DNA of 20,000 nt, taken from the IMG/VR virus record IMGVR_UViG_3300042554_003148; one strand, given 5' to 3'. The translations under genes and the position numbers were made by a program. Shown here in pieces: positions 7,878 to 20,000 of this stretch; the first letter of the stretch is position 1, and the number at the start of each line of letters is the position of its first letter. Below the pieces are notes generated by a model that searched no databases, had not been told where the DNA came from, and saw nothing but the letters and a program-made list of their open reading frames with translations. The DNA comes from an uncultured virus (IMG/VR IMGVR_UViG_3300042554_003148) (Duplodnaviria; Heunggongvirae; Uroviricota; Caudoviricetes).

Positions 7878-10079
7878 TTATTTTGTACTATACACCATTG
7901 TATAAAAAGATGATTTAGCTTGTTTAATTTCATCAACTGTTAATTCTCTAGAGAGTTCTAATTTAACCAAATTTAACCAATTATAAAAAGTTTTAGTATC
8001 ATTACTAGTTGATGCTGATAAATATTCTGTTATATTTTCTTCATTTAGTTTAGCAAAAGGTTTGGTCTGAAAAAGAATATTTGTTTTAATTTTTTCTAAT
8101 TCTTCATTTTCAGCATTGGATAAACTCCTTAAATTTTTCTTATCAAAATATTCTAAAATTAATGGATTGATTATAGAACTAATTTTGTCTTGTGCAGAAG
8201 ATGACCATATTAAGAGTTTGGCGCCAGTTTGGGGCGAAAATGTTCTGTCCTTTCTTTTTTCGGTATCTTTGGATAATTTGGGTCTGCCTTCGCCTGCTTC
8301 TTTCGGCAACGATTCCGAGGACGGATCGTTAGCCACCTTGGGTGCCCCAAAAGGAGATTTTACTTGTTCTGCTTTTTGTTCTAATGCTGTTTTTTCGCTT
8401 GGTTTTTTCTTTGGTAAATCTAATCCTACTTGACTTGGTGTTACAATTCCTAATTGTAAAGATATTTTCTTAAGAGCATTTTCAAATTGAGGATCGTGCC
8501 ACGGACCAGCTTTTTGTACCATTCTTTCGGAATCTCTTTCTTTTCTTTCTCTATTAAGTCTTGATTTTTCCATATCTGGATCAAAGCCAAATTTGGTCTG
8601 TAATAACTCATCACTAATAAGACTTCTATCTGCTAATTGTATTAGTAGTGCCTTCTCTGCGTCTTCATTACTTAGGTCCATTCTATCAAATTCTATTTTA
8701 GCTGGATATCTAAAACCCATAGCTTTTTGCACAATTTCTATTTCACCTTCCCAAAATTTAACCAACATATCTCTACCATATTGTAGTCTTTGTGTTAAGG
8801 TTTTTAGACTAATAAAATTATTAGTAGTTCCTGCTGCTCCGAATGTGCCAGTAAGTGTTGGAGGAATTCCCAAACCAGCATAGATAGCATTTAAATGAGG
8901 AGTATATTTACCTTCTCCAAGAAAATTATGAACATTAGTATTACTTTCTAACAATTCAATATCTGGGCCCCATACCAAATCCATTGTACCGCCACCAACA
9001 TTGTTTCCTAAAATTTGTGCTAGTTTGGCTGTTGCTGCTTTTGTTGGAGCAATTTTATGTTCTAAATTACCTAATTTGAAAATTCTAATATTACTTATAG
9101 CTCCATCTAGAGCCGCCATGTCTGCTAATTTTAGTTTTTCGATAACAGTAATATCGTCCATAATAGCATATATCATAGGATATGCCCATGCTTGCCAATC
9201 ATCTTTTTTATAATGAAAAACTAGTGTCTTTTCCGGATCTAATGGATATGGTCTTTTAGTTTTAGCTGCTAATACTATTGCTTCTGGAAGAAGAGATACT
9301 ATCTGTTTTTCTGCTTCTGTTTTTGGACTATTAATATTTTTTCTAAAAGTAGCCGGTAAAATTAATTCATATCTTTTTTCACTAACAAATGATGATAAGG
9401 ATCCGGCTGCGCTTTCAACATAAACTGGATCTATAAAAGTATATCTCCAAGGAATTTCTTTTTTTTCTATCTTAAATTGATCCATCTGTTTAACATTGAG
9501 ATCAGGAGATCCAATAGTTTTGTATAGATTATCAGTAACTTTTAATGATATTTTGGCTGTTTGTTTATGAATAACAATATTGCCTGTTTTATATAGATTA
9601 TTTAAAAATCTTTCGCTACGATCTTTACCATTAATTTTTTTGAACCACTGTCTATAAAATCTTTCTATTCTTTTATTTTTATGAACTAATTTAATACCAT
9701 GTACAGCAAAATCACCCATAAGATCGATAACATTTTTTACCAAACCAACACGATGATAAATATCTTCTGCTCTTCGGATAACTAGTTTAATCTTTTTAGG
9801 AACAGCTTCGTCTGGTCTAAAAGCATAGTAGTCATTACGAGTTAATCCAGGACGACCACCAGTATCACCGTCTAGATTAGAAAAATCTATACTATACCTT
9901 CTACCGCCGCCAAAAGCTGCTGTAGAATTTTGAATTCCTGTAAATTCATCTAGAGATTCGGATGATCTTTTAAGAGCATCTTGTTTACTAGATAAATCCT
10001 CTCCCCATGTGACATAAGCATCCTCTCCTATAGATGATGCGTTTTTAATAACGTCTTCTTTGTTTGGTTTTCTGGGCAT
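7878..10079 (-). CDS. Portal protein (733 aa)
   Basis: Directly after terminase; IY.RVGLVKNVIDLMGDF, helical core, AGLGIP..L.G clip-like segment and a charged low-complexity C-terminal extension. Confidence 0.8.
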   Translation of the reverse strand: MPRKPNKEDVIKNASSIGEDAYVTWGEDLSSKQDALKRSSESLDEFTGIQNSTAAFGGGRRYSIDFSNLDGDTGGRPGLTRNDYYAFRPDEAVPKKIKLVIRRAEDIYHRVGLVKNVIDLMGDFAVHGIKLVHKNKRIERFYRQWFKKINGKDRSERFLNNLYKTGNIVIHKQTAKISLKVTDNLYKTIGSPDLNVKQMDQFKIEKKEIPWRYTFIDPVYVESAAGSLSSFVSEKRYELILPATFRKNINSPKTEAEKQIVSLLPEAIVLAAKTKRPYPLDPEKTLVFHYKKDDWQAWAYPMIYAIMDDITVIEKLKLADMAALDGAISNIRIFKLGNLEHKIAPTKAATAKLAQILGNNVGGGTMDLVWGPDIELLESNTNVHNFLGEGKYTPHLNAIYAGLGIPPTLTGTFGAAGTTNNFISLKTLTQRLQYGRDMLVKFWEGEIEIVQKAMGFRYPAKIEFDRMDLSNEDAEKALLIQLADRSLISDELLQTKFGFDPDMEKSRLNRERKERDSERMVQKAGPWHDPQFENALKKISLQLGIVTPSQVGLDLPKKKPSEKTALEQKAEQVKSPFGAPKVANDPSSESLPKEAGEGRPKLSKDTEKRKDRTFSPQTGAKLLIWSSSAQDKISSIINPLILEYFDKKNLRSLSNAENEELEKIKTNILFQTKPFAKLNEENITEYLSASTSNDTKTFYNWLNLVKLELSRELTVDEIKQAKSSFYTMVYSTK

Positions 10080-10133
10080 ATATTTATTTCTAATGTAATA
10101 GTAATGCTATTTGATTACTTTAATAATACACTT

Positions 10134-12161
10134 TTATCTGTAAATTCCTTGATAAATATCGTCATCATTAACATTCGATGTGAACCATTCGGGACCTTTA
10201 TATAGTTTATTACTTTGTTGATTAACTAAATCTCTACTATCTCCACCAACAATATCATAATTTGGAGACTGTAAGGTTCTATTTAATTGTCTAGCTATCA
10301 TATTAGCTATCAATAATGAACTATATCGGTCTTTTCGTAATCTTCCTTTTTTACCATTTGGTAATTTTACTTCCGGAGTATCCCATCTGTCTCTTGCTTG
10401 TGGACCAGTGCTAGTTTGGGTCATAACTATAGTTGTTAATTCGTTTTTAAGTTCTTCTATTTCTAGTATGCATTCACTAACGCTATCATATAATGGATTT
10501 AAATCGTCGTCTAAGATATTTTTTCCTTCTTTTTCCATAGCAAGACCAAGTGTAAGATTATCAAAACGTGGAAATAGTAATATTTTATCTTCTAGATCTT
10601 TTCTTAATCCATGATTAGCTTGACTTGTCCAATCTGCCTTTGCAAATTGTACTAGTTCCAGAATGTGTAAACCTTGTTGAGAATCAGTATCTTTTGCTTT
10701 GTCATAATCAATAATTGGCCATATTAGTTGTTCATTATCTTGAAGCTTGCCAGGATCGTGCAAAGCTTCTTCTATTGCAACGCCACCCCCTTGAGCATCC
10801 ATTCCTATTCTAATAGGAGGAAAGGTTTTCATAAGATCTCTAATTTTTCTAGAACAAAAACTATAAAAGTCATATTCTTGTGCTAGTCCAACCTTTTGTC
10901 TTTCTTTAAAATTATTTCTATTTGTTGCCCAACAATATACTATTCTAGAATGATCCGGATGAACTTCTAATATTACTATACTAAAATTATCTTGTTCACT
11001 AGCAGGATCGATACCGTAAACATAATGTAAATTAGGATTACCTTGAGTTATAGCATCAAAAACTACTGGTTTGTTACCAATTGTTATTGCCGGATAATCT
11101 TTTGTAACACAACTTTCTATTAAACTTCTTCTAAAAAATCCCTGACTATCATTAACGAAACATGCAGCATATTCCATATTATATATACCAACATGAATAG
11201 TAGCTTTTGCTCTACTTACTTGTTTATCATCCATAAATCCTTTAGGTATTAATTCATAGGGTATACGAATAATACTATAATCTTTCCAATTAAAATTTGG
11301 TGGAATTTCTCCATTAAAGATTTCTCGTAGTTTTCTTTCTTCGCCTTTACTTTCTATAATACTTTTATATCTTTTCCAGTACTGAGCAAAATGCTTGAAA
11401 CCGTAGTCTGCTGTTCCACTTATCACTGCTTGATTATTAATTCTTCTAGAAATAGTATCTAATTCTTCGCTCCATACTCCTGCTAATTTCATAGCTGCTT
11501 TTTTAGCTTCTTCTTTAACGTTCTGAATTGGACTGGCACTAACAGCAGCGAAACCAGAAACTACCGTCTCATAAATATCTGGAGATATACTACTAAACTC
11601 ATCTGCTAAAATAATATGAGCGCGTAAACCTCTAATCTTATCTCCATTACCTAAAGGAATAGCTATGGCCCAACTATCTCCCAGTCTTATAGTACATCTA
11701 TCAACATCTCGTCGTGGACCATCTTCGTTGCCATTGAATATGCTTCTTAAAATAGGACTATTTTTCCACATATTTTCCATATATTCAAAGATAATTTTAC
11801 TTTGTCTAAAAGCAGCACCAACTATAACCACCTTGGTCCCTGGATAGAAAGCACACTTTAGTACCGCATACAGAGCTAACAGAAAGCTTTTACTAAAACC
11901 ACGACTACCAATAAGCATAGGGAAAGGACGATTCCACATTTCTTGTAGAACCATAGTCTGCATAGGATGTAATTCTATGTTAAAAATAAGTTTACAGGTT
12001 GATCCTATATAATATGGATTTCTTAAAATTCTTAATAGATGCAAGTCTGGATTTTCTATATCTTCCTTTGTCCTATGAATCATAGGATTATTAGGAATAC
12101 TAAGAGCACTTATATCTCCTAGTCCAAGCCAAGCATTATCAAAACTTTTAAAATCAACCAT
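10134..12161 (-). CDS. terL: Terminase large subunit (675 aa)
   Basis: LHPMQ motif, Walker A-like GSRGFSKS, Walker B RGLRAHIILADE, coupling motif ISGTA, nuclease motifs YVYGIDPA and KDRYSSL. Confidence 0.92.
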   Translation of the reverse strand: MVDFKSFDNAWLGLGDISALSIPNNPMIHRTKEDIENPDLHLLRILRNPYYIGSTCKLIFNIELHPMQTMVLQEMWNRPFPMLIGSRGFSKSFLLALYAVLKCAFYPGTKVVIVGAAFRQSKIIFEYMENMWKNSPILRSIFNGNEDGPRRDVDRCTIRLGDSWAIAIPLGNGDKIRGLRAHIILADEFSSISPDIYETVVSGFAAVSASPIQNVKEEAKKAAMKLAGVWSEELDTISRRINNQAVISGTADYGFKHFAQYWKRYKSIIESKGEERKLREIFNGEIPPNFNWKDYSIIRIPYELIPKGFMDDKQVSRAKATIHVGIYNMEYAACFVNDSQGFFRRSLIESCVTKDYPAITIGNKPVVFDAITQGNPNLHYVYGIDPASEQDNFSIVILEVHPDHSRIVYCWATNRNNFKERQKVGLAQEYDFYSFCSRKIRDLMKTFPPIRIGMDAQGGGVAIEEALHDPGKLQDNEQLIWPIIDYDKAKDTDSQQGLHILELVQFAKADWTSQANHGLRKDLEDKILLFPRFDNLTLGLAMEKEGKNILDDDLNPLYDSVSECILEIEELKNELTTIVMTQTSTGPQARDRWDTPEVKLPNGKKGRLRKDRYSSLLIANMIARQLNRTLQSPNYDIVGGDSRDLVNQQSNKLYKGPEWFTSNVNDDDIYQGIYR

Positions 12162-12723
12162 TAGATTGCTTTATTAATCTTCTAGAAGTTTTTATCGCTC
12201 TTTTAACTATCATAGATGCTACAGACTCAATGTATGGTAAGCTTCTTTTTGCGCTTTCTTCTTTTAGCCAACCTAGGATAGTTGGTAAATTTTGTTCGCA
12301 CCAGTCATTACCTTTTTCATTCATTTCTATAGCATGGCGTCTGCAAGAACAATTTGGGGTACTTTTAATTCCCATTGTGCTAATCATATTTGTTAATATG
12401 GTTCCTGGACCATTAGGAAATTCTTCTAAGGTTTTGGGAAATTTGCTTCTAAGCTTGGTTGCGGTATCATCTTTAATGCTATCATATAGTAGTTGTTCTA
12501 GTGTGGATCTATTAACATCCCCAAGCTTCTCATAATCGATACCATTTGCAATAACAAATGAACCAGGAATATTTCTAACAGTTGCAGAAACTATCTTGTT
12601 GGTTGGATTGTCGTGATAGGTAACATCTAAATAATCCATAACTAATGGTGGTGGATTAACTAATTGATTATTTTGATCAGTATATGGTGGCGGATAGATG
12701 GTGACTGAATTTTCAAGTTTCAT
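12154..12723 (-). CDS. Hypothetical protein with C-terminal Cys-containing domain (189 aa)
   Basis: Overlaps both neighbours; GGAG RBS; C-terminal GPGT...GI....CSC...A..MN..G..WC motif. Confidence 0.75.
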   Translation of the reverse strand: MKLENSVTIYPPPYTDQNNQLVNPPPLVMDYLDVTYHDNPTNKIVSATVRNIPGSFVIANGIDYEKLGDVNRSTLEQLLYDSIKDDTATKLRSKFPKTLEEFPNGPGTILTNMISTMGIKSTPNCSCRRHAIEMNEKGNDWCEQNLPTILGWLKEESAKRSLPYIESVASMIVKRAIKTSRRLIKQSNG

Positions 12724-13201
12724 TTTGGTTCTCCTTTGGTTTATTGTTTATGAGGTAAATCCTTTTAATAATATATTCTGCTACTTTTTCTGCATTAGAT
12801 GCATTATTACAAAATAATACTTTAATATCGTATTTAAGCTGCCAATCTAATATATTCTTCATTATAAATGCTGGAGTAATTCTAACTTTATCCCACATTC
12901 TTTTTGGTAGATTTGATCCTATAGGATAGTTTAACACATCATTCATGCTAAATTCTAATAGGAAAAATGAATATTTAAGTTGGCTCATTCTATGTACAAC
13001 ATCTTTGAACCGTGGTTCAATAATATTATTAGCAATTTCATTTATACTCTTTTTACGTTCTATAGCAAAAACGTCCTGAAGACCTTCTATACTATAATCG
13101 CCAGTATCTAATTTTTTATTAGCAACTACATAATCCTCAAAAGACCACGGTTGTTGCTCTCTGGTATCTATTATGATCGTAAAGTCTTCATTATTTATCA
13201 T
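12713..13201 (-). CDS. ERCC4/XPF-family nuclease (162 aa)
   Basis: IIIDTREQQP, LDTGDYSI and IERKKS match the ERCC4 GDxnERK active-site signature. Confidence 0.85.
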   Translation of the reverse strand: MINNEDFTIIIDTREQQPWSFEDYVVANKKLDTGDYSIEGLQDVFAIERKKSINEIANNIIEPRFKDVVHRMSQLKYSFFLLEFSMNDVLNYPIGSNLPKRMWDKVRITPAFIMKNILDWQLKYDIKVLFCNNASNAEKVAEYIIKRIYLINNKPKENQNET

Positions 13202-13469
13202 TTGATTTTTTATTATCAGATATTAATTTGCTAAAAACTGCTTCGTATGCGTTTTCGTTTCCTTCTATAAGAGAGTGATGAAATTTACACAAAGTGATTC
13301 CGTTATTTATATTATATCTCAAATCAACGCTATCAACCCATCTTTTGATATGGTGAACATGTAATTTTTTAGATGCTAAACATCCTGGCCATTGACATTT
13401 GTATTGATCTCGTTTTTTAACCTCTTGTCTAAAATTTTTGTATAATGGATCGTTATAATTTCTAAACAT
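13191..13469 (-). CDS. HNH endonuclease (92 aa)
   Basis: RDQYKCQWPGC, LHVHHIK and NGITLCKFHH motifs. Confidence 0.9.
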   Translation of the reverse strand: MFRNYNDPLYKNFRQEVKKRDQYKCQWPGCLASKKLHVHHIKRWVDSVDLRYNINNGITLCKFHHSLIEGNENAYEAVFSKLISDNKKSNDK

Positions 13470-14454
13470 TAGCGTAAACTTTAATGTCGCTTTGTATCAT
13501 TTCGCTAACTAAATCATCAAAAGAAGTTGATGGAATCCATCCTAGTACTTTTTGAGCTTTAAGAGATCGGCCACATAAATAGTCAACTTCTGCTGGTCGA
13601 TATAATGACGGATCAATTTCCACATATTGTTTGTAGTCTAGATCCACACTCTCAAAAGATTTGATAACAAAATTTAATACGCTATGAGTTTGACCGGTAC
13701 AAATAACAAAGTCGTCAGGAACATCTTGCTGTAGCATCAAATACATAGCATATACATAATCTTTAGCGTGACCCCAATCTCTGTAAGCTTGAAGATTACC
13801 AAGTTTTAAACTGTCTGATGTTTTCTTGTTAACTAATTGGCCAATATATTTGGTAACTTTTCGCGTTAGAAAATTTTCGCCACGTCGCGGACTTTCATGA
13901 TTAAATAGTATGCCGCTAGTAGCAAAGATATTATAAGCATCACGATATATTCGTACCAAATTGTGACTAGCAACTTTGCTAACAGCATACGGACTTTGTG
14001 GAATTAGTGGAGTATTTTCATCTTGATATTTATTATTATCTTTATCCACACTATAATTTTTACCAAACATTTCGCTAGTGCTAGCTTGATAATATTTTGT
14101 AGCAGATGATGTGGTTCTTATGCCCTCTAAAATATGTAAAACTCCCATGGTATTAATATCAAACGTTGTGGAGGGCTGGTGAAAACTGGTTCCCACATGA
14201 CTCATAGCGGCTAAGTTATAGAATTCGTCTGGTTCGTATTGTTTTAATATGGATAGTATTACTGAAGGATCTGTAAGATCAAATTCCAAAAGAGTTAAAT
14301 TAGGATGATCTACTATACTGGATATTCTTTCAAAATGATACGAACTACTACGTCTATATAATCCAATAACTTTGTAGTCTTTTTCTAATAATAGTTCGGC
14401 TAGATAGCTGCCATCTTGACCAGTAATGCCTGTTATTATAGCTGTTTTATTCAT
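13462..14454 (-). CDS. gmd: GDP-mannose 4,6-dehydratase (330 aa)
   Basis: ITGITGQDGSYLAE, YNLAAMSHV, YQASTSEMFG, SPYAVSK, LFNHESPRRGENF and RDWGHAKDYV are all Gmd signatures. Confidence 0.96.
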   Translation of the reverse strand: MNKTAIITGITGQDGSYLAELLLEKDYKVIGLYRRSSSYHFERISSIVDHPNLTLLEFDLTDPSVILSILKQYEPDEFYNLAAMSHVGTSFHQPSTTFDINTMGVLHILEGIRTTSSATKYYQASTSEMFGKNYSVDKDNNKYQDENTPLIPQSPYAVSKVASHNLVRIYRDAYNIFATSGILFNHESPRRGENFLTRKVTKYIGQLVNKKTSDSLKLGNLQAYRDWGHAKDYVYAMYLMLQQDVPDDFVICTGQTHSVLNFVIKSFESVDLDYKQYVEIDPSLYRPAEVDYLCGRSLKAQKVLGWIPSTSFDDLVSEMIQSDIKVYANV

Positions 14455-15277
14455 TGTGATTTTCCATAAATTCTGGTGTTAGTAATGGTACGTCCACAGT
14501 ATTGTCTTGATAAGTATGATATTGTTGCATTCTTTCTTTGGCTCCGTTTGCTGCCATTCCAAGAATTTCCATTTCTTTGCCTTCTTTTTCTCTGACTATT
14601 TCATCTTCTAGCATTCGTATTAAACCAACCCAACTACTTTTGCCATCTTCTATTCTTTTTATTCTTTGTTCCCTAGTAGCTTTAAGATCCTTGCTAATTT
14701 TTTGCTGTTCGTTAAGAAGTTTGGTATATTCATTAGTGTAATTAGCGATACTGTTGCGGGCAAACGACAATTGAGTTTCGAGATTAGCCAGTTTCGGTAT
14801 ATCTCTTTGATCCTCACTTTTTTCATATTCTTTATCCACAAGCTTTTGTAATTTTTCAGTTTCGCTAATGTGTCTTTTTCGTTCCTTCATGCTACGGTTA
14901 ATTAATATATCAATAGTGATAAATTGTTTAATTTGCAACTCTTCTGCTGGTAAAACGTCTTCTCTAAACTGTTTTATTAGTCCAACCCAAGTATCTTCAA
15001 AGTATTGGAGTTCGCCGCTGTCCGCATCAAATTGACGTGTAATTTCTACCCAAAAGGTTTTACTATGTAATTTATCTTTTAGGGTTTCATAAGCCGCTTT
15101 GTCTTCTGGATCAATTAGTAAATTATTTTCATTAATATATCGCTTAATTGGTCCTTCATGACGATTAAGATTAGATGATATAGTATCTATGCTTAATAAA
15201 TTAACATTCTCACGAATATAAGCTTCTTCATCTAAACTTAGTTGTCCTCGTTTTTTGGGAATTCTGTTGGCTTCCAC
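14447..15277 (-). CDS. Putative terminase small subunit (N-terminal HTH-like, long coiled coil; 276 aa)
   Basis: Basic start then EEAYIRENV..LSIDTIS..LNR HTH-like segment, long helical region, location upstream of terL. Function is inferred from context only. Confidence 0.45.
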   Translation of the reverse strand: MEANRIPKKRGQLSLDEEAYIRENVNLLSIDTISSNLNRHEGPIKRYINENNLLIDPEDKAAYETLKDKLHSKTFWVEITRQFDADSGELQYFEDTWVGLIKQFREDVLPAEELQIKQFITIDILINRSMKERKRHISETEKLQKLVDKEYEKSEDQRDIPKLANLETQLSFARNSIANYTNEYTKLLNEQQKISKDLKATREQRIKRIEDGKSSWVGLIRMLEDEIVREKEGKEMEILGMAANGAKERMQQYHTYQDNTVDVPLLTPEFMENHNE

Positions 15278-15879
15278 TGGTGCTCCTTCATTATTTCAGC
15301 GATGTGTTTTTTAAGTTTAGTTAATTCTGACTTATTAATTTTTTGATTGTGTTTTAATTTTAAATAGCTTTCTCTATATTCTGATCTTATATTAGAATCT
15401 AAAAAAGATACTATTTCTGAGCTTTCATGAGAAGTACTAGATGCTGACAATAACGATAAATCTTCAACATAAGATGGCTTGGCTATGTTCTTTTTAGCAT
15501 CGTTTCGCTTGGCCCATGAAGCATATGGTTCGCATTCCTTTTTGTCAATAAATTTAGAGCACTGATTGTTAGAAACTTTATAAGCAGCATCGTATAGTGG
15601 ACACGTTAAACAAGGCTTGTCTGGTCTTTGATAGTTATTTCTTTTGTAATTAAATAACCGATTTCGCACATGAGTCCATAAAAAGTTTTCTAATGGCCTT
15701 TTATAATCATAATTTTTTAATCCTTCTAACGCAAATATGGCCGCTTGTTGTTTCATGTCCTCGGCACTGTGATAGCCGAATTTAAATTTGTGAGCTAATT
15801 TTTTAGTAATTTTATCTAATACTTGTAAAAATTCAGCATCTGAAACTTGATTTTTATTTTCCAGAATTTTTTTCTTCAT
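15238..15879 (-). CDS. Phage RNA polymerase sigma-like factor (213 aa)
   Basis: AEDMKQQAAIFALEGLKNYD..RPLENFLWTHVRNRLFNYKR resembles sigma-70 region 2; followed by a four-Cys segment and a helical C-terminus. Confidence 0.75.
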   Translation of the reverse strand: MKKKILENKNQVSDAEFLQVLDKITKKLAHKFKFGYHSAEDMKQQAAIFALEGLKNYDYKRPLENFLWTHVRNRLFNYKRNNYQRPDKPCLTCPLYDAAYKVSNNQCSKFIDKKECEPYASWAKRNDAKKNIAKPSYVEDLSLLSASSTSHESSEIVSFLDSNIRSEYRESYLKLKHNQKINKSELTKLKKHIAEIMKEHQWKPTEFPKNEDN

Positions 15880-16015
15880 TATCTAGTAGAATTGATATAT
15901 CCTCTCCGTCTGGTAGTTGCAGATCGCTTTGAGCCTGGTCCACAATACATCCTGATGCTTTGACCGATAAGATCGAAGATGTAAGATTGGTAATATTAGA
16001 ATCAAAATTAATCAT
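15854..16015 (-). CDS. Small hypothetical protein (53 aa)
   Basis: ATG at 16015 (MINFDSN) after AAGGGG; first ORF of the leftward operon. The track start at 16042 lies in the promoter region. Confidence 0.5.
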   Translation of the reverse strand: MINFDSNITNLTSSILSVKASGCIVDQAQSDLQLPDGEDISILLDNEEKNSGK

Positions 16016-16025
16016 ATTGAGCCCC

Positions 16026-16079
16026 TTGCTTAAAAGAACCAAAACTATAATATAATAGAGTTGATCATCACATTGTCAA
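16026..16079. promoter_or_regulatory. Overlapping sigma-70-type promoters at the strand switch
   Basis: Minus: TTGACA (16074-16079)-N16-TATTAT. Plus: TTGCTT (16026-16031) upstream of TATAATATAAT (16046-16056). The -10 regions overlap. Confidence 0.55.
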
Positions 16080-16105
16080 TATTTACACTATATGGAGAGA
16101 ATAAA

Positions 16106-16342
16106 ATGAGCTACAGAAAATGGGGTCAGGTTGAATTGGATTTTATCCGCGATAATTTTAATGTTATTTCTGATGATGAAATTGCTGTACGATTGAGTCA
16201 AATAACAAATAGTAGTATTACTACTCCTATGGTGCGACGACAAAGGCGCAAACTTGGTATTCAAAAGCCACGAGGTCGTCAACCAAAGAACAAAAATGCC
16301 TCAATGCCAGCATCGTTTGCATCATCAAATGATAATGGTTGA
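16106..16342 (+). CDS. Small HTH-like DNA-binding protein with basic AT-hook-like tail (78 aa)
   Basis: ATG at 16106 after GGAGAG; W...E..FI......SD.EIA..L ... VRRQRRKLG pattern followed by KPRGRQPK. Confidence 0.7.
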   Translation: MSYRKWGQVELDFIRDNFNVISDDEIAVRLSQITNSSITTPMVRRQRRKLGIQKPRGRQPKNKNASMPASFASSNDNG

Positions 16343-16375
16343 ACATAAAATTTTAAATTAGATTATGATAAAATT

Positions 16376-16399
16376 GGGGCATTAAGTTGCCCCTTTTTT
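16376..16399 (+). terminator. Rho-independent terminator
   Basis: GGGGCA-TTAAGT-TGCCCC-TTTTTT after the HTH gene. Confidence 0.75.
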
Positions 16400-16428
16400 A
16401 TTTAACCATATAGCATAAGGAAAATAAT

Positions 16429-17346
16429 ATGAAAGTTTTAGTTACTGGTGGTAATGGATTTTTAGGGTCTAGAATTATGAAAGTTCTAAAAGATCAAGGT
16501 TATGATGCTTCAACATTTAGATCAAGAAATTTTGATTTGTGCAATCCTAAGCAAACTAAGGATGCTTTTGATAGATATCGGCCAGATGCTGTGATACACT
16601 GTGCTGCTGTGGTTGGTGGAATAGGGGCAAATAGAGTTAATCCAGGATCATTTTTTTATCAAAACATGATGATGGGATTAAATGTTATTGAAAATTGTAG
16701 AGTTTTTGATGTGAGTAAAGTTGTGCAGATAGGAACGGTTTGTAGTTATCCTAAATATACTCCGGTTCCTTTTAGTGAGGATAGTTTGTGGGACGGCTAT
16801 CCGGAAGAAACTAATGCTCCGTACGGAATAGCTAAAAAAGCTCTTTATGTTATGGTAGAAGCTTATAAAAATCAATATGATCTAAATGGTTGCGTATTGG
16901 TGCCTTGTAATTTATATGGGCCAAATGATAATTTTGATCCTGGTAGTAGTCATGTTATTCCGGCTTTGATTAAAAAGTTTATTGATGCAAAACAAAATAA
17001 CAATACCGAGGTAGAATGTTGGGGAAGCGGAAGTGCCACACGAGAATTTTTATATGTGGATGATGCTGCTGAGGCTATAGTAAAAAGCTTGAGCGTGGAT
17101 ACTGATTCTAAGCCTATTAATCTGGGCGGTGGTGTTGAAATAACAATAAAAGATTTAGCAGAAAAAATAAAACTATTTGTTGGATACGATGGAAATATAG
17201 CTTGGAATAGCGATCAGCCAGATGGTCAGCCACGAAGATTTCTTGATGTATCACGAGCCAAAAAGGTACTGAGCTGGGAACCAAAGGTAAGTTTTGATGC
17301 TGGATTAAAAGAGACTATAGAGTGGTACGGGGCTAATAAAAAATGA
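16429..17346 (+). CDS. fcl: GDP-L-fucose synthase (epimerase/reductase, 305 aa)
   Basis: TGGNGFLG, AAVVGGIGAN, GTVCSYP, YGIAKK (YxxxK), NLYGPNDNF, SSHVIPAL, WGSGSATREFLYVDD and PDGQPRR. Confidence 0.95.
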   Translation: MKVLVTGGNGFLGSRIMKVLKDQGYDASTFRSRNFDLCNPKQTKDAFDRYRPDAVIHCAAVVGGIGANRVNPGSFFYQNMMMGLNVIENCRVFDVSKVVQIGTVCSYPKYTPVPFSEDSLWDGYPEETNAPYGIAKKALYVMVEAYKNQYDLNGCVLVPCNLYGPNDNFDPGSSHVIPALIKKFIDAKQNNNTEVECWGSGSATREFLYVDDAAEAIVKSLSVDTDSKPINLGGGVEITIKDLAEKIKLFVGYDGNIAWNSDQPDGQPRRFLDVSRAKKVLSWEPKVSFDAGLKETIEWYGANKK

Positions 17347-17768
17347 ATATTAAACTTTTAGAAGCTACGGATAATATACAAGATTATATAGATTGCGTGA
17401 AGGATCTAAATAGTCATTATACTAATTTGAGTTCAATAGAAGATATTAAATATGTGCTAGAGCACAGACCGTCAAATATATTAACTTTTGTGATGGTGAA
17501 CGATAGTGATAGGATAGTATCAACAGCAACGGTGATTATGGAAAAAAAATTAAGATATCAAAATTTATGTATGCATATAGAGGATGTTGGCACTCATCCA
17601 CATTTTCGTAATCTTGGATACGGTTCGGAACTAATTCGATACTGCGTAAAAATAGCAGAAGAGAACAAATGCTACAAAGTTAAATTGAATTGTGAAAAAG
17701 ATTTAGTAAGCTTCTATGAGAAACTAGATTTTAAGGTTGGCGGAAACCACATGGGGCGATCATTATAG
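17343..17768 (+). CDS. GNAT acetyltransferase, GNA1 (glucosamine-6-phosphate N-acetyltransferase)-like (141 aa)
   Basis: IVSTATVIMEKK, HIEDV..HP.FRNLGYG and CYKVKLNC....V.FYEKLDF match the GNA1 subfamily pattern; ATGA overlap with fcl. Confidence 0.8.
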   Translation: MNIKLLEATDNIQDYIDCVKDLNSHYTNLSSIEDIKYVLEHRPSNILTFVMVNDSDRIVSTATVIMEKKLRYQNLCMHIEDVGTHPHFRNLGYGSELIRYCVKIAEENKCYKVKLNCEKDLVSFYEKLDFKVGGNHMGRSL

Positions 17769-17885
17769 TTTAGGTAAGACATTTGTTTTAGTTTTGGCTT
17801 ACTATGTTTAGACCACCGCCGGTTTTTTGAGACTGATTCTCAATATCAAACCAAAATGAAAAAACCCCCCTACTAAGCGGGTGAC

Positions 17886-18032
17886 GCAAAATGCTGTGCA
17901 AAATGCTACAGTATGACGCAAAATGCTACAGTGATCCTTACCCCCGTCTCAAAATGAGAATGCTGTAACCCTATATTTTTCAAGGGGTTACGAAAAATCC
18001 TATTTTTTTTCTCGAATGGCACGACATTCGCA
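17886..18032 (+). promoter_or_regulatory. Module A upstream region: putative enhancer boxes, 21-bp dyad repeat, IHF-like palindrome, sigma-54 promoter
   Basis: GCAAAATGCT at 17886, 17898 and 17918; ACCCCCGTCTCAAAATGAGAA at 17940-17960; palindrome at 17964-17992; TGGCACG-ACAT-TCGCA at 18017-18032 with correct GG-N10-GC spacing. Confidence 0.7.
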
Positions 18033-18090
18033 TATATATCTGGTATCGAAACAAGGGGTTTCGGAAACAAGTAGAAAAAGGATAGATAAG

Positions 18091-18321
18091 ATGGAAAACA
18101 TGATTGTGCTCAATACGGTTCGTGAGTTGTGCGAGTTGATCAACAATACGACCATGACCACGTTTGTTGGTCGTGTTGCTTTTGCAATGGACCTTCTGGA
18201 AAGGGTTCGCCATAATGATAACATGATCGAAATCAATCATGAGTTGGGATTCTGCGATGATGGTGGATTCATCCAGATTGATGAGATGGGTTATGTGGTC
18301 GATGATTATGCGATCCAGTGA
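18091..18321 (+). CDS. Small acidic hypothetical protein (76 aa)
   Basis: ATG at 18091 (MENMIVL) after AAGGA. The track start at 18016 falls inside the sigma-54 motif. Confidence 0.65.
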   Translation: MENMIVLNTVRELCELINNTTMTTFVGRVAFAMDLLERVRHNDNMIEINHELGFCDDGGFIQIDEMGYVVDDYAIQ

Positions 18322-18331
18322 TTCCCTATAA

Positions 18332-18366
18332 GGGGGGTTGTGGCAGCGAAAAAGTTTGGTAGGATC
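18332..18366 (+). promoter_or_regulatory. Repeated sigma-70-like promoter, copy 1
   Basis: GGGGGG-TTGTGG-N16-TAGGAT with an extended -10 TG; near-identical copy at 19256-19290. Confidence 0.6.
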
Positions 18367-18389
18367 ATAGAAAAGAAAGAGAGAAAAAG

Positions 18390-18575
18390 ATGGTTTACAA
18401 TGTTGGCGATAGGTTGAGTGTGGTCTATAGTACTGGCGAATCGTTCACCGGTGAACTGGTTAGCGTTCGTGAGATTCCGAACAAGGGAACGCTTATTCTG
18501 GTGAACGACGAAACGGTAGGCTATCGGTCCATGTATGCCGACAAGGTTGTGAGCGTAATCGTGGAGAATGCTTGA
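18390..18575 (+). CDS. Small beta-rich (SH3/Sm-like) hypothetical protein (61 aa)
   Basis: VGDRLSVVY..GESFTGELVSV pattern; purine-rich leader AAGAAAGAGAG. Confidence 0.65.
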   Translation: MVYNVGDRLSVVYSTGESFTGELVSVREIPNKGTLILVNDETVGYRSMYADKVVSVIVENA

Positions 18576-18782
18576 ATGGATACTAACTACTTTCAATCAT
18601 CGTTCGAGAGTATGGAAACGAGTACCATACGATTGTGGCTCCACGAAGCACAAGTACGACTGCCCCATGAGAGGGGTAGCGTTCGTGAGATACTGAAAGA
18701 AGGTATACGCGCGTCTGCTCGTGAACTGTTGTTCAGGTATCGAGAGGATATGAAAAGAATCTTTTCAAAAAACTCGACGTAA
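18576..18782 (+). CDS. Small helical hypothetical protein (68 aa)
   Basis: Starts immediately after the previous stop; its stop lies inside the first 29-bp palindrome of the repeat block. Confidence 0.6.
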   Translation: MDTNYFQSSFESMETSTIRLWLHEAQVRLPHERGSVREILKEGIRASARELLFRYREDMKRIFSKNST

Positions 18783-18859
18783 ACCCTTGATACGTAAGGA
18801 CTTACGGCGAAATTGGGCCGCCATTTTTGACGTAACTCCTTATGGTTCAAGCACTTACG
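18771..18859. repeat. Paired 29-bp palindrome block, copy 1
   Basis: CGTAAACCCTT-GATACGT-AAGGACTTACG (18778-18806) and CGTAACTCCTT-ATGGTTC-AAGCACTTACG (18831-18859); direct repeat of 19787-19875. Confidence 0.9.
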
Positions 18860-18879
18860 GCGACCCCAAAGGTGGTGTA

Positions 18880-19026
18880 GCAAAACGCTGTAGCAAAATG
18901 CAACACCTGTAGCAAAATGCTTCACCTTGGCACACCCCCGTCTCAAAATGAGAAAGTTGTAAAGTGTTGTCCCATAAGGACTTAGAAAGAAAAAAATATT
19001 TTTCAGACTTTGGCACGGGAAGTGCA
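18880..19026 (+). promoter_or_regulatory. Module B upstream region: putative enhancer boxes, 21-bp dyad repeat, IHF-like palindrome, sigma-54 promoter
   Basis: GCAAAAYGCW at 18880, 18893 and 18912; ACCCCCGTCTCAAAATGAGAA at 18934-18954; palindrome at 18958-18986; TGGCACG-GGAA-GTGCA at 19011-19026. Confidence 0.7.
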
Positions 19027-19057
19027 TTATATAGAGGCATAAGAAAGAGAGTGAAAG

Positions 19058-19243
19058 ATGGATAAGACGATTTATTTGGTTTCCGATTGCTGCTATGTTG
19101 AAAGCAACCCAGATTACCAAGTCTGCTCATGTTGTGGTGAGCATTGCGAAATGGTTGTGGATGATTCGATCCATACTGCTATGATGGATGATTTCATCGA
19201 GTCAGACTATATCCCCGGTTATGATGATGGTGAGGCTATCTAG
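19058..19243 (+). CDS. Small Cys-rich (zinc-ribbon-like) protein with acidic tail (61 aa)
   Basis: SDCC ... CSCCGEHC motif; AAGAAAGAGAG leader; directly downstream of the sigma-54 motif. Confidence 0.7.
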   Translation: MDKTIYLVSDCCYVESNPDYQVCSCCGEHCEMVVDDSIHTAMMDDFIESDYIPGYDDGEAI

Positions 19244-19255
19244 TCTCACCTAATC

Positions 19256-19290
19256 GGGGGGTTGCGGCGGCGAAAAAGTTTGGTAGAATC
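19256..19290 (+). promoter_or_regulatory. Repeated sigma-70-like promoter, copy 2
   Basis: GGGGGG-TTGCGG-N16-TAGAAT with an extended -10 TG. Confidence 0.6.
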
Positions 19291-19314
19291 AGCACACAAG
19301 AAAGAGAGAAGAGA

Positions 19315-19632
19315 ATGGAAAAGTTTCGAATCGTTGAAGAATACAAGCGTACAGTTCGTGGTATCTTCTATGGTATGGCGATCCCTTGCGACAAGCGTAG
19401 TGCCGATGGTGGTACGATTACCAGTGAGAAGGTATTGAAGTTCAATCGTTCAGCGTTGCGAAAGATTGGCAAGAGTAAGGTCGAAAAGGCTGACCCCCGC
19501 ATGGTAGGTGGTGAGGATCGTATGCGTTTCCCGGTTGGCAAGCCCGGTTCCCCCGAAAGGGTGGTTGCTCTTGCAGAGCAATATGCTAGCCTCGCGGATG
19601 ATGAGATGAGTCCCTTTACTGGAGATGAGTGA
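19315..19632 (+). CDS. Hypothetical protein (105 aa)
   Basis: AAGAAAGAGAG leader after the repeated promoter; C-terminal KPGSPERVVALAEQY motif. Confidence 0.7.
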   Translation: MEKFRIVEEYKRTVRGIFYGMAIPCDKRSADGGTITSEKVLKFNRSALRKIGKSKVEKADPRMVGGEDRMRFPVGKPGSPERVVALAEQYASLADDEMSPFTGDE

Positions 19633-19813
19633 GAACATGACCATTCAAGTACAAAATACACTCCATCGCCTTGTTGCTCACCACGGTTATTCGGCTACAT
19701 TTGTACAGTATATGGGAGAGGGTATATGTATGTACAGTATCGGCGGCATCATGTACCGCATTAGGGGGATGGTACGATTCTCTAAGAACTCGACGCAAAC
19801 CCTTGATACGTAA
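19625..19813 (+). CDS. Small hypothetical protein (62 aa; alternative start 19637; 3' end uncertain)
   Basis: Overlaps the previous stop; occupies the same slot as 18576-18782 and ends inside the palindrome block. Confidence 0.55.
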   Translation: MSENMTIQVQNTLHRLVAHHGYSATFVQYMGEGICMYSIGGIMYRIRGMVRFSKNSTQTLDT

Positions 19814-19875
19814 GGACTTAGGCAAAAATCGGGCCCGCAATTTTGACGTAAGTGCTTATGAGACAATGACTTACG
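19787..19875. repeat. Paired 29-bp palindrome block, copy 2
   Basis: CGCAAACCCTT-GATACGT-AAGGACTTAGG (19794-19822) and CGTAAGTGCTT-ATGAGAC-AATGACTTACG (19847-19875); first 34 nt match copy 1 at 33 positions. Confidence 0.9.
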
Positions 19876-19897
19876 ACAAACTCTATGCCATGATTTT

Positions 19898-19931
19898 TGG
19901 CATGAAAATTGCTCTAGCATATGGTGTGCCA
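19898..19931. promoter_or_regulatory. Two head-to-head sigma-54 -24/-12 motifs
   Basis: Plus TGGCATG-AAAA-TTGCT (19898-19913) and minus TGGCACA-CCAT-ATGCT (19916-19931). Confidence 0.55.
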
Positions 19932-20000
19932 ATATGGAAGAAAATTATGAAAAGTTTTGTCAAAATCTCTTGACACAAAAATTTCCAGATTTTTCTTGCA

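Follow-up and report, generated by a model that had tools for sequence, protein, structure and literature searches.

A strain-variable island of small-gene modules with putative twin IHF-type sites in a large lake phage

Results

Two modules with a common scaffold close the phage contig

The DNA analyzed here, called the window throughout, is a stretch of 20,000 nucleotides from an uncultured virus (IMG/VR record IMGVR_UViG_3300042554_003148; Caudoviricetes), and its right-hand end carries the beginning of an island of short gene modules in which repeated promoters and palindromic blocks separate small open reading frames (ORFs). The window takes up the final 20 kb of a contig of 126.7 kb, so that its end is the contig end and falls inside the array. 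The start of the array coincides with a step in G+C content from 33% to 44%, and the other window genes include a terminase, a capsid-type gene, an ECF-like sigma factor, and sugar-nucleotide genes. The phage family is large (1808 homologs of the sigma factor) and comes from lake or freshwater metagenomes in all 24 listed runs. It has no close cultured member, since a comparison of the capsid with 50,697 phage records gave Bacillus phage G, at 22%, as its only match, and a search with the scaffold found no match in cultured phages and plasmids.

Two consecutive modules in the window share the order of elements that an earlier note on this DNA had described, and the three repeat offsets that it gave are exact (17940/18934, 994 bp; 18325/19249, 924 bp; and 18762/19778, 1016 bp, with 98 nt at 81%). 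Module 1 opens with enhancer-like repeats containing three GCAAAATGC cores (17882–17932, plus strand), the predicted sites of a putative bacterial enhancer-binding protein (bEBP) as activator. These are followed by the palindrome TCTCA-AAA-TGAGA, apparently a second regulator-type site (17947–17959), by a lone 25-bp site resembling those of integration host factor (IHF), with 1 mismatch, in the gap between enhancer and promoter (17966–17990, 51 nt before TGGCAC), and by a sigma-54 −24/−12 promoter motif (18017–18032, plus strand). The cargo, also on the plus strand, consists of an ORF of 76 aa without family match (f1, 18091–18321), a sigma-70-type "G6" promoter with an extended −10 and a short CCC..GGGG stem before it (18325–18367), and ORFs of 61 aa (f2, 18390–18575) and 68 aa (f3, 18576–18782). 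Block 1 closes the module (18780–18857) with 2 symmetric 25-bp sites (18780–18804 and 18833–18857) placed 53 bp apart, start to start, around a GC-rich spacer.

Module 2 repeats this layout with enhancer-like repeats (18876–18924, plus strand), the same palindrome (18941–18953), a lone 25-bp IHF-type site with a perfect skeleton (18960–18984, again 51 nt before TGGCAC), and a sigma-54 −24/−12 motif (19011–19026, plus strand) that was read from the letters by alignment with module 1. Its plus-strand cargo comprises a Cys-rich ORF of 61 aa (f5, 19058–19243), a second G6 promoter (19249–19291), an ORF of 105 aa that is widespread in the family (f6, 19315–19632), and the f7 ORF (19625–19813), which has 62 aa here and 49 aa in most strains, including a near-identical one whose G run has one G more. 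Block 2 follows (19796–19873; sites 19796–19820 and 19849–19873, 53 bp apart), and beyond it 2 sigma-54-like motifs without an enhancer stand face to face (19898–19913, plus strand; 19916–19931, minus strand). In three other strains (L008, L011, and L012), a leftward sigma-54-like motif lies to the left of the first enhancer and shares it.

The ORFs in matching slots of the 2 modules (76/61, 61/105, and 68/62 aa) are unrelated, as had been suspected (best blastp E 0.13; profile–profile probabilities 0.49, 0.05, and 0.25%), and these comparisons rule out that they are paralogues left by a tandem duplication. The short C-terminal likeness noted between them is present, but it arises because both ORFs read into the block. 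Paralogues do occur in other slots (f5 twice; f3 and f41, the latter a distant paralogue farther along the island, at 74%; f6 twice in the related genome G001). All 5 perfect copies of the 25-bp skeleton in the window fall within 18780–19873. Allowing 1 mismatch gives 9 copies against 3.6 expected, a number reached in 2 of 200 shuffles, while the sigma-54 pattern was counted 3 times where 0.18 were expected, a number that none of 200 shuffles reached; this count leaves out the site at 19011, which has a G where the pattern required A/T.

The island continues in related strains

We compared the window with loci of related strains (L-numbers) and with related phage genomes (G000, G001, and G002). 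Because related phages are non-independent samples, the phase and count statistics given below are inflated. L002 and L013 are 99.9% identical to positions 8332–20000 of the window and run on past the contig end, L221 extends further, and together they bring the array to 10 blocks over some 12 kb. The array therefore goes on downstream, as predicted, although the motifs at 19898 and 19916 do not announce another sigma-54 module. The idea of a constant 1-kb scaffold did not hold, as the later modules are of sigma-70 type and 0.4–2 kb long; the sigma-54 type is confined to the first 2–3 modules, and in the window strain only the first 2 have the enhancer and sigma-54 unit, module 3 already starting with a sigma-70-type promoter. 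The island is thus a series of 10 or more short gene modules, spanning roughly 12 kb, in a large lake phage.

The later modules open with TTGACA-N16/17-TAKAAT promoters that have UP-like A/T tracts and often an extended −10. Nine sigma-70-like sites matching at 11 of 12 positions lie on the coding strand within 8.4 kb, and a promoter scoring 10 or more was found at most 140 nt from 298 of 400 blocks. The stem of the G6 promoter is present in 44 of 47 copies, the G run being forced by the search; it is short and lacks a U run. The sigma-54 motifs of the array modules have the GG-N10-GC of −24/−12 promoters, and the enhancer cores peak at 98–99, 118, and 130–131 nt before TGGCAC. The lone 25-bp site at 51 nt accompanies 25 of the 62 enhancer-linked sigma-54 motifs. 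Searches for a sigma-54 gene and for an activator gene, each in 5 possibly incomplete phage records, found none. Judging from their motifs, the promoters are likely early promoters read by the host RNA polymerase.

A CGAT(A) motif lies within the −35/−10 spacer of 231 of 298 island sigma-70 promoters (for example, L013 14476–14503 and 17534–17561), and an upstream TAAA precedes CGAT by 18–19 nt in 66 of 69 promoters. The motif could possibly mark the site of a cofactor, or a promoter nested within the first and used by a second sigma factor. A nested sigma-28 promoter (TAAA...CCGATA) was considered and set aside, the TAAA–CGAT spacing being 1–2 bases above that of Escherichia coli.

The blocks are twin symmetric sites with a fixed geometry

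Each block consists of two 25-bp imperfect palindromes with the skeleton YAA-N4-TTR-N5-YAA-N4-TTR, which can equally be read as YAA-N4-TT-N7-AA-N4-TTR, whose starts lie 53 bp apart in a total of 78 bp. When spacings of 26–120 bp were allowed, the distance was 53 bp in 14 of 14 pairs of G001 and 12 of 12 pairs of G002. It was the same in 458 of 509 unique pairs from 219 loci, a figure that is partly circular because some of the loci were fetched with a fixed-gap pattern. The sites are concentrated in the island, with 22 perfect skeletons in the 24-kb island of G001 versus 1 in 199 kb outside it, and 20 in the 13-kb island of G002 versus none in 137 kb outside. In 400 blocks each AA/TT position was kept at 0.91–1.0 (the outer letters being partly forced by the search). 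The TAAG-t and a-CTTA inner arms were kept at 78–100%, and the central 5 bp of the sites were nearly random.

Distances from the block end to TTGACA peaked at 19–21, 29–32, 40–44, and 61–65 nt, and blocks and promoters kept a helical phase with a resultant of 0.60 at 10.5 bp (n = 236 of 400 blocks); without the main peak, the resultant was 0.42 with the same phase (n = 117). Covariation gave no support for a hairpin, since in 270 non-redundant blocks all 9 pairing tests scored at or below shuffled partners (z −0.3 to −6.1), which indicates that neither the small nor the large palindrome behaves as one. A terminator scan called none of 7 blocks on the coding strand and 2 of 7 on the minus strand, with 5 calls in the region against 6.1 expected, and an Rfam search found no match. 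A reading of the blocks as hairpins, attC sites, or repetitive extragenic palindromic (REP) elements was ruled out on these grounds. From their sequence, the blocks are predicted to be double-stranded binding sites for protein, set on a fixed helix face relative to the promoter.

Cargo genes are exchanged between strains

In module maps of 12 close strains, the scaffold was shared and its cargo differed. At least 3 unrelated families (f5, f34, or f75) occur in the slot that follows the second sigma-54 promoter, f1 precedes either f2 or f6, a 47-aa form of f5 stands in module 2 or module 3, and whole modules are present or absent. In the 4 strains with a separable core, no breaks were seen in 7.9–11.3 kb of core at 94–95% identity, whereas array stretches of 1.1–8.3 kb had 2–9 breaks (10 strains). 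L009 has an additional module, which ends in a chimeric block made of the left half of block 6 and the right end of block 4. Across 27 loci there were 7 non-collinear junctions, of 4 types: block to block, G6 to G6, the start of 2 paralogous ORFs, and one intergenic junction. Backward joints in contigs also match hybrid blocks of linear strain contigs; this evidence comes from contigs only, and joints at 88% likeness are unreliable. Together, the maps, break counts, and junctions bear out the proposal that close strains exchange, acquire, lose, and rearrange cargo at positions matched by the scaffold. What the earlier note had named as grounds for abandoning its idea, namely an absence of copies downstream, a constant ORF order among relatives, or paralogy between slots, was not encountered.

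Breaks were rare inside genes (12 of 55, with genes making up 58% of bases; p = 5e-8). Scaffold elements held 28 of the 55 breaks and 28 of the 43 non-coding ones (65% versus 66% expected), and blocks, at 8% of bases, held 12 of 55 overall and 12 of 43 non-coding breaks (20% expected). As the share of the scaffold is at expectation, exchange follows gene boundaries and all repeated signals and has no single cut site, and a fixed cassette unit of about 1 kb is not supported. Neither is a dedicated shuffling machine: no tyrosine recombinase (PF00589) was found in 5 relatives, a search that did not cover the window's own contig, and no serine recombinase (PF00239) in that contig and 4 relatives, 3 of the records being at least 90% complete and the others possibly less so. 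Homologous recombination at these repeats likely accounts for the exchange of cargo. The scaffold itself makes most sense as a layout for transcription, in which IHF-type sites are in phase with promoters, and shuffling would be a side effect of its being repeated.

None of the 6 window ORFs matched Pfam, nor any PHROG at E below 0.01. Among 71 island proteins, 11 had some Pfam match and 7 passed the curated cut-off, leaving 64 that did not; the matches include the L7/L12 C-terminal domain, Kyano_Gp96, GP88/DUF7227, pyrimidine-dimer glycosylase, PRTase, and DUF932. PADLOC, whose models describe defence and not anti-defence, matched none of 24 island proteins. By analogy, a takeover or anti-defence role of the cargo is plausible. 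Very acidic, Asp/Tyr-rich small ORFs occur family-wide (L013 14733–15008 and 14531–14722) and have a likeness to DNA mimics that is confined to composition. Farther along the island, a protein with the L7/L12 C-terminal domain is encoded at L013 19134–19505, and tRNA genes lie at L221 8255–8329 and 9905–9976 and at L037 13649–14479, with 11 in the 20-kb stretch L037 of G001.

An IHF-type protein is the probable binder

The lambda H' site of IHF has TT-N7-AA-N4-TTG (PMC2709558). This is three quarters of the 25-bp skeleton, and mirroring its TTR side yields the 25-mer. According to other reports, the 2 steps at which IHF kinks DNA are separated by 9 bp and it recognizes TTR on the flank (10.1101/382655, PMC8421141), Arg46 of its beta subunit enters the lateral minor groove (PMC8421141), its bend angle has been described (PMC6907758), and in bacterial sigma-54 promoters it sits between the activator sites and the promoter (PMC3897727, PMC2709558). 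The island sites contain the AA-N4-TTR core with TT/AA steps 9 bp apart and lack the WATC of WATCAR-N4-TTR. An IHF-beta-like gene is optional cargo within the island in 19 related loci, many of them near-identical strains, and in 10 of these it lies 84–87 nt behind a block. The encoded protein matches PF00216 and IHF models best, with E44, R46, and P64 invariant and R42 nearly so. One such gene is at L233 2233–2532, a locus with 2 copies, and about 65 homologs of the phage protein at more than 60% identity lie mostly on short contigs.

The likeness to the H' skeleton, the lone site in the slot typical of IHF, and the IHF-family gene among the cargo suggest that the blocks bind an IHF-type protein, which we regard as probable with an appreciable margin of doubt. 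No IHF gene was found in any of the 5 phage records searched, the window's own included, so that the binder would have to be a host protein. The named cellular homologs nearest to the phage IHF are IHF-beta proteins of Planctomycetaceae/Planctomycetota (46–49%), a weak indication that the host is likely a member of the Planctomycetota. An assignment through genome bins was discarded, because 11 capsid matches were spread over at least 6 unrelated lineages, which we take for misbinning; 5 of these bins contained no planctomycete genome that could be searched.

Features beside the island

A gene at 16106–16342 (plus strand), transcribed away from the phage sigma gene, encodes a 78-aa protein with a three-helix helix-turn-helix (HTH) fold and an AT-hook-like tail. 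It has 36 distinct homologs in related loci, with AT_hook matches in 8 of 33 family members and invariant RRQRRK and GR. The predicted fold resembles the GcrA DNA-binding domain (probability 0.95), a match that is not significant (E 0.72). One may speculate that this protein reads the CGAT in island promoter spacers.

In L009, a 700-bp minus-strand insert separates a GNAT gene from the island (11330–12030), as it does in L008, L010, and L012; its wording resembles the 189-aa ORF at 12154–12723 of the window, and the insert is absent from the window strain. Many contigs of the family terminate in or at the island. At the island start (L013, about 11360), summed contig depth rose 2–3 fold in 4 of 4 runs, a measure that gives no copy number and is taken where strains differ just upstream; the rise may reflect a terminal repeat or strain variation upstream. 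Elsewhere, GGTGTAT(A/T) occurs on the minus strand at 7896 and 4666 of the window, and in genome-wide surveys 6 of 16 occurrences in G000 and 17 of 28 in G001 were followed by an ORF start within 90 nt (4–9% expected). It is a candidate late promoter for the phage sigma factor at 15238–15879.

Discussion

The element described here is real and family-wide, and its cargo shuffles between strains. The explanation that we favor, and think reasonably probable, is that of an early module island led by twin IHF-type sites 53 bp apart, whose cargo is swapped by homologous recombination. In this model, a homodimeric, beta-type IHF would read TTR on both arms, for which the ideal site would be a symmetrised lambda H'. 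In the first modules, a single site would bend the stretch that separates the enhancer from the sigma-54 promoter, and these enhancer-type promoters would need a host activator. Ahead of sigma-70 promoters, two sites five turns apart would place their bends on a fixed helix face, and these twin bends might help polymerase loading or insulate neighbouring units. General phage recombination could then swap single ORFs or whole modules without breaking expression, as in the elements of T4-type phages discussed below, since each gene lies between promoter, ribosome-binding, and block sequences that resemble those around the others.

Several observations weigh against this explanation. The WAT of the E. 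coli consensus is not conserved, with full 9/9 matches in 1, 10, 20, and 2 of 270 blocks for the 4 arms, while the partial conservation of the GC spacer and of the N4 letters is more than IHF alone explains. As many as 37 of the 62 sigma-54 motifs have no site at −51, in a set that includes opposite-facing motifs and relatives with another element at that position. The 5 records searched lack an IHF gene, a conserved gene for the 78-aa HTH protein adjoins the island in every relative examined, and the early timing is predicted from promoter type.

The presence of this HTH gene is the starting point of a rival explanation, in which the blocks would be operators for a phage protein, most likely the 78-aa protein itself, that switches the early island off or on. 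Its conservation beside the island (36 homologs with invariant RRQRRK and GR), its three-helix DNA-binding fold, and a helical phase that would suit any regulator all fit. The lone site, however, occupies the enhancer–promoter slot typical of a bender, the skeleton is that of a symmetrised H' site, the fold match is not significant, and a GcrA-like fold would suit the CGAT of the sigma-70 spacers at least equally well, so that we hold this possibility to be rather doubtful. We give similarly little weight to binding by another host protein, architectural or repressor, that would recognize four 10-bp TAAG-NN-CTTA half-units at 0, 15, 53, and 68. Conservation of the TAAG-t and a-CTTA arms goes beyond what IHF needs, and WAT is not conserved; yet none of the consensus sequences considered (CRP, FNR, Fis, Lrp, LexA, HrcA, dif) fits, and the capture of an IHF gene into the island points to IHF.

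It seems very improbable that a phage or host recombinase uses the blocks as recombination sites in a cassette system of integron-like or resolvase-like type. The chimeric block at a module gain, the excess of breaks in blocks relative to their share of bases, the four-arm layout, and a 53-bp centre distance reminiscent of resolvase res sites would speak for it. The lack of covariation excludes an attC-like hairpin, though, the central 5 bp are nearly random, neither recombinase family was found, breaks are equally common at promoters and ORF ends (blocks holding 12 of 43 non-coding breaks against 20% expected), and the blocks are phased with promoters. Least credible of all is that they act as RNA or single-strand hairpins, such as terminators or processing sites. 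They are palindromic, lie between a gene end and the next promoter as the stem-loops of T4-type phages do (PMC2839356), and gave 2 minus-strand terminator-like calls, but against this stand the absent covariation and Rfam matches, a length fixed to the base, and terminator calls that are nil on the coding strand and below expectation in the region.

A broader form of the twin-site IHF explanation would see a family-wide island shaped by a host protein, in which paired in-phase IHF U-turns wrap about 100 bp into a full nucleosome-like loop once per kilobase, insulating and powering the modules, some lineages capture an IHF of their own to secure this, and the first operons fire only with an active host sigma-54 activator, so that the phage would read the state of its host before it commits itself. 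We consider this extension unlikely, if somewhat less so than the rivals above. Should the favored explanation be true, phages would borrow enhancer-dependent sigma-54 promoters and phased IHF bends, which are rarely credited to them, and several hundred symmetric sites would form a natural library for defining the binding code of homodimeric IHF in a little-studied phylum. The island would also mark a fast-evolving pool of small uncharacterized genes for host-takeover and counter-defence screening. The shuffling itself is an expected extension of the biology of the T4-type stem-loop cassettes compared below. The literature that we covered, which included few subscription papers, described neither twin symmetric IHF-type sites nor, for the early regions of phages, enhancer sigma-54 promoters.

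Bacterial promoters that depend on both IHF and sigma-54 include nif, glnHp2, Pu, and Desulfovibrio orp (PMC2709558, PMC3897727, PMC8421141, 10.1101/382655). The island shares with them the H' skeleton TT-N7-AA-N4-TTR and a lone site between activator sites and −24/−12, and an IHF-beta-like protein is among the cargo of the phage family. As in enhancer-dependent sigma-54 promoters generally, repeated activator sites lie about 80–150 bp upstream with a bender site between. However, the island sites are two-fold symmetric, lack WAT, and form pairs 53 bp apart repeated 10–15 times, and they belong to a phage without its own sigma-54 or activator in the records searched.

Phage SPO1 has a host-takeover module of small genes behind many strong host-type promoters, and an HU-like protein, TF1. 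A small-gene cluster behind such promoters and a phage-encoded protein of the HU/IHF family are common to both, but in the island the IHF gene is optional cargo and the cargo is unrelated to known families. In integron arrays, small unrelated ORFs are separated by four-arm imperfect inverted repeats (attC). The island resembles them in these features and in module gain and loss; it differs in having no hairpin covariation, its own promoters in each cassette, a constant block length, and no tyrosine integrase in 5 related records, and it is not an integron array.

The nearest known system is that of the promoter early stem-loop (PeSL) cassettes of the T4-type phages RB49/phi1, PST, and nt-1, and the comparison made in the earlier note is apt. 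PeSLs are repeated early-promoter signals around small uncharacterized ORFs of a hypervariable region, gains, losses, and replacements map to them, and no dedicated recombinase is known for their exchange (PMC2839356, PMC4122927). Both systems repeat a strong sigma-70-like promoter between small ORFs, and in both the insertions, deletions, and replacements that distinguish close phages coincide with the elements, although here there is no preference among non-coding sequence. The CCC..GGGG stem of the G6 promoter resembles the GGGG...CCCC stem of PeSLs, making this promoter their nearest counterpart in the island. In contrast to a PeSL, the block is a 78-bp duplex double site of fixed geometry with no terminator stem-loop, the phage is not T4-type (its only capsid match being Bacillus phage G), and the first modules use enhancer-type sigma-54 promoters. 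Taken together, the sequence comparisons suggest that the island works like a PeSL system, yet it is not a member of the PeSL class.

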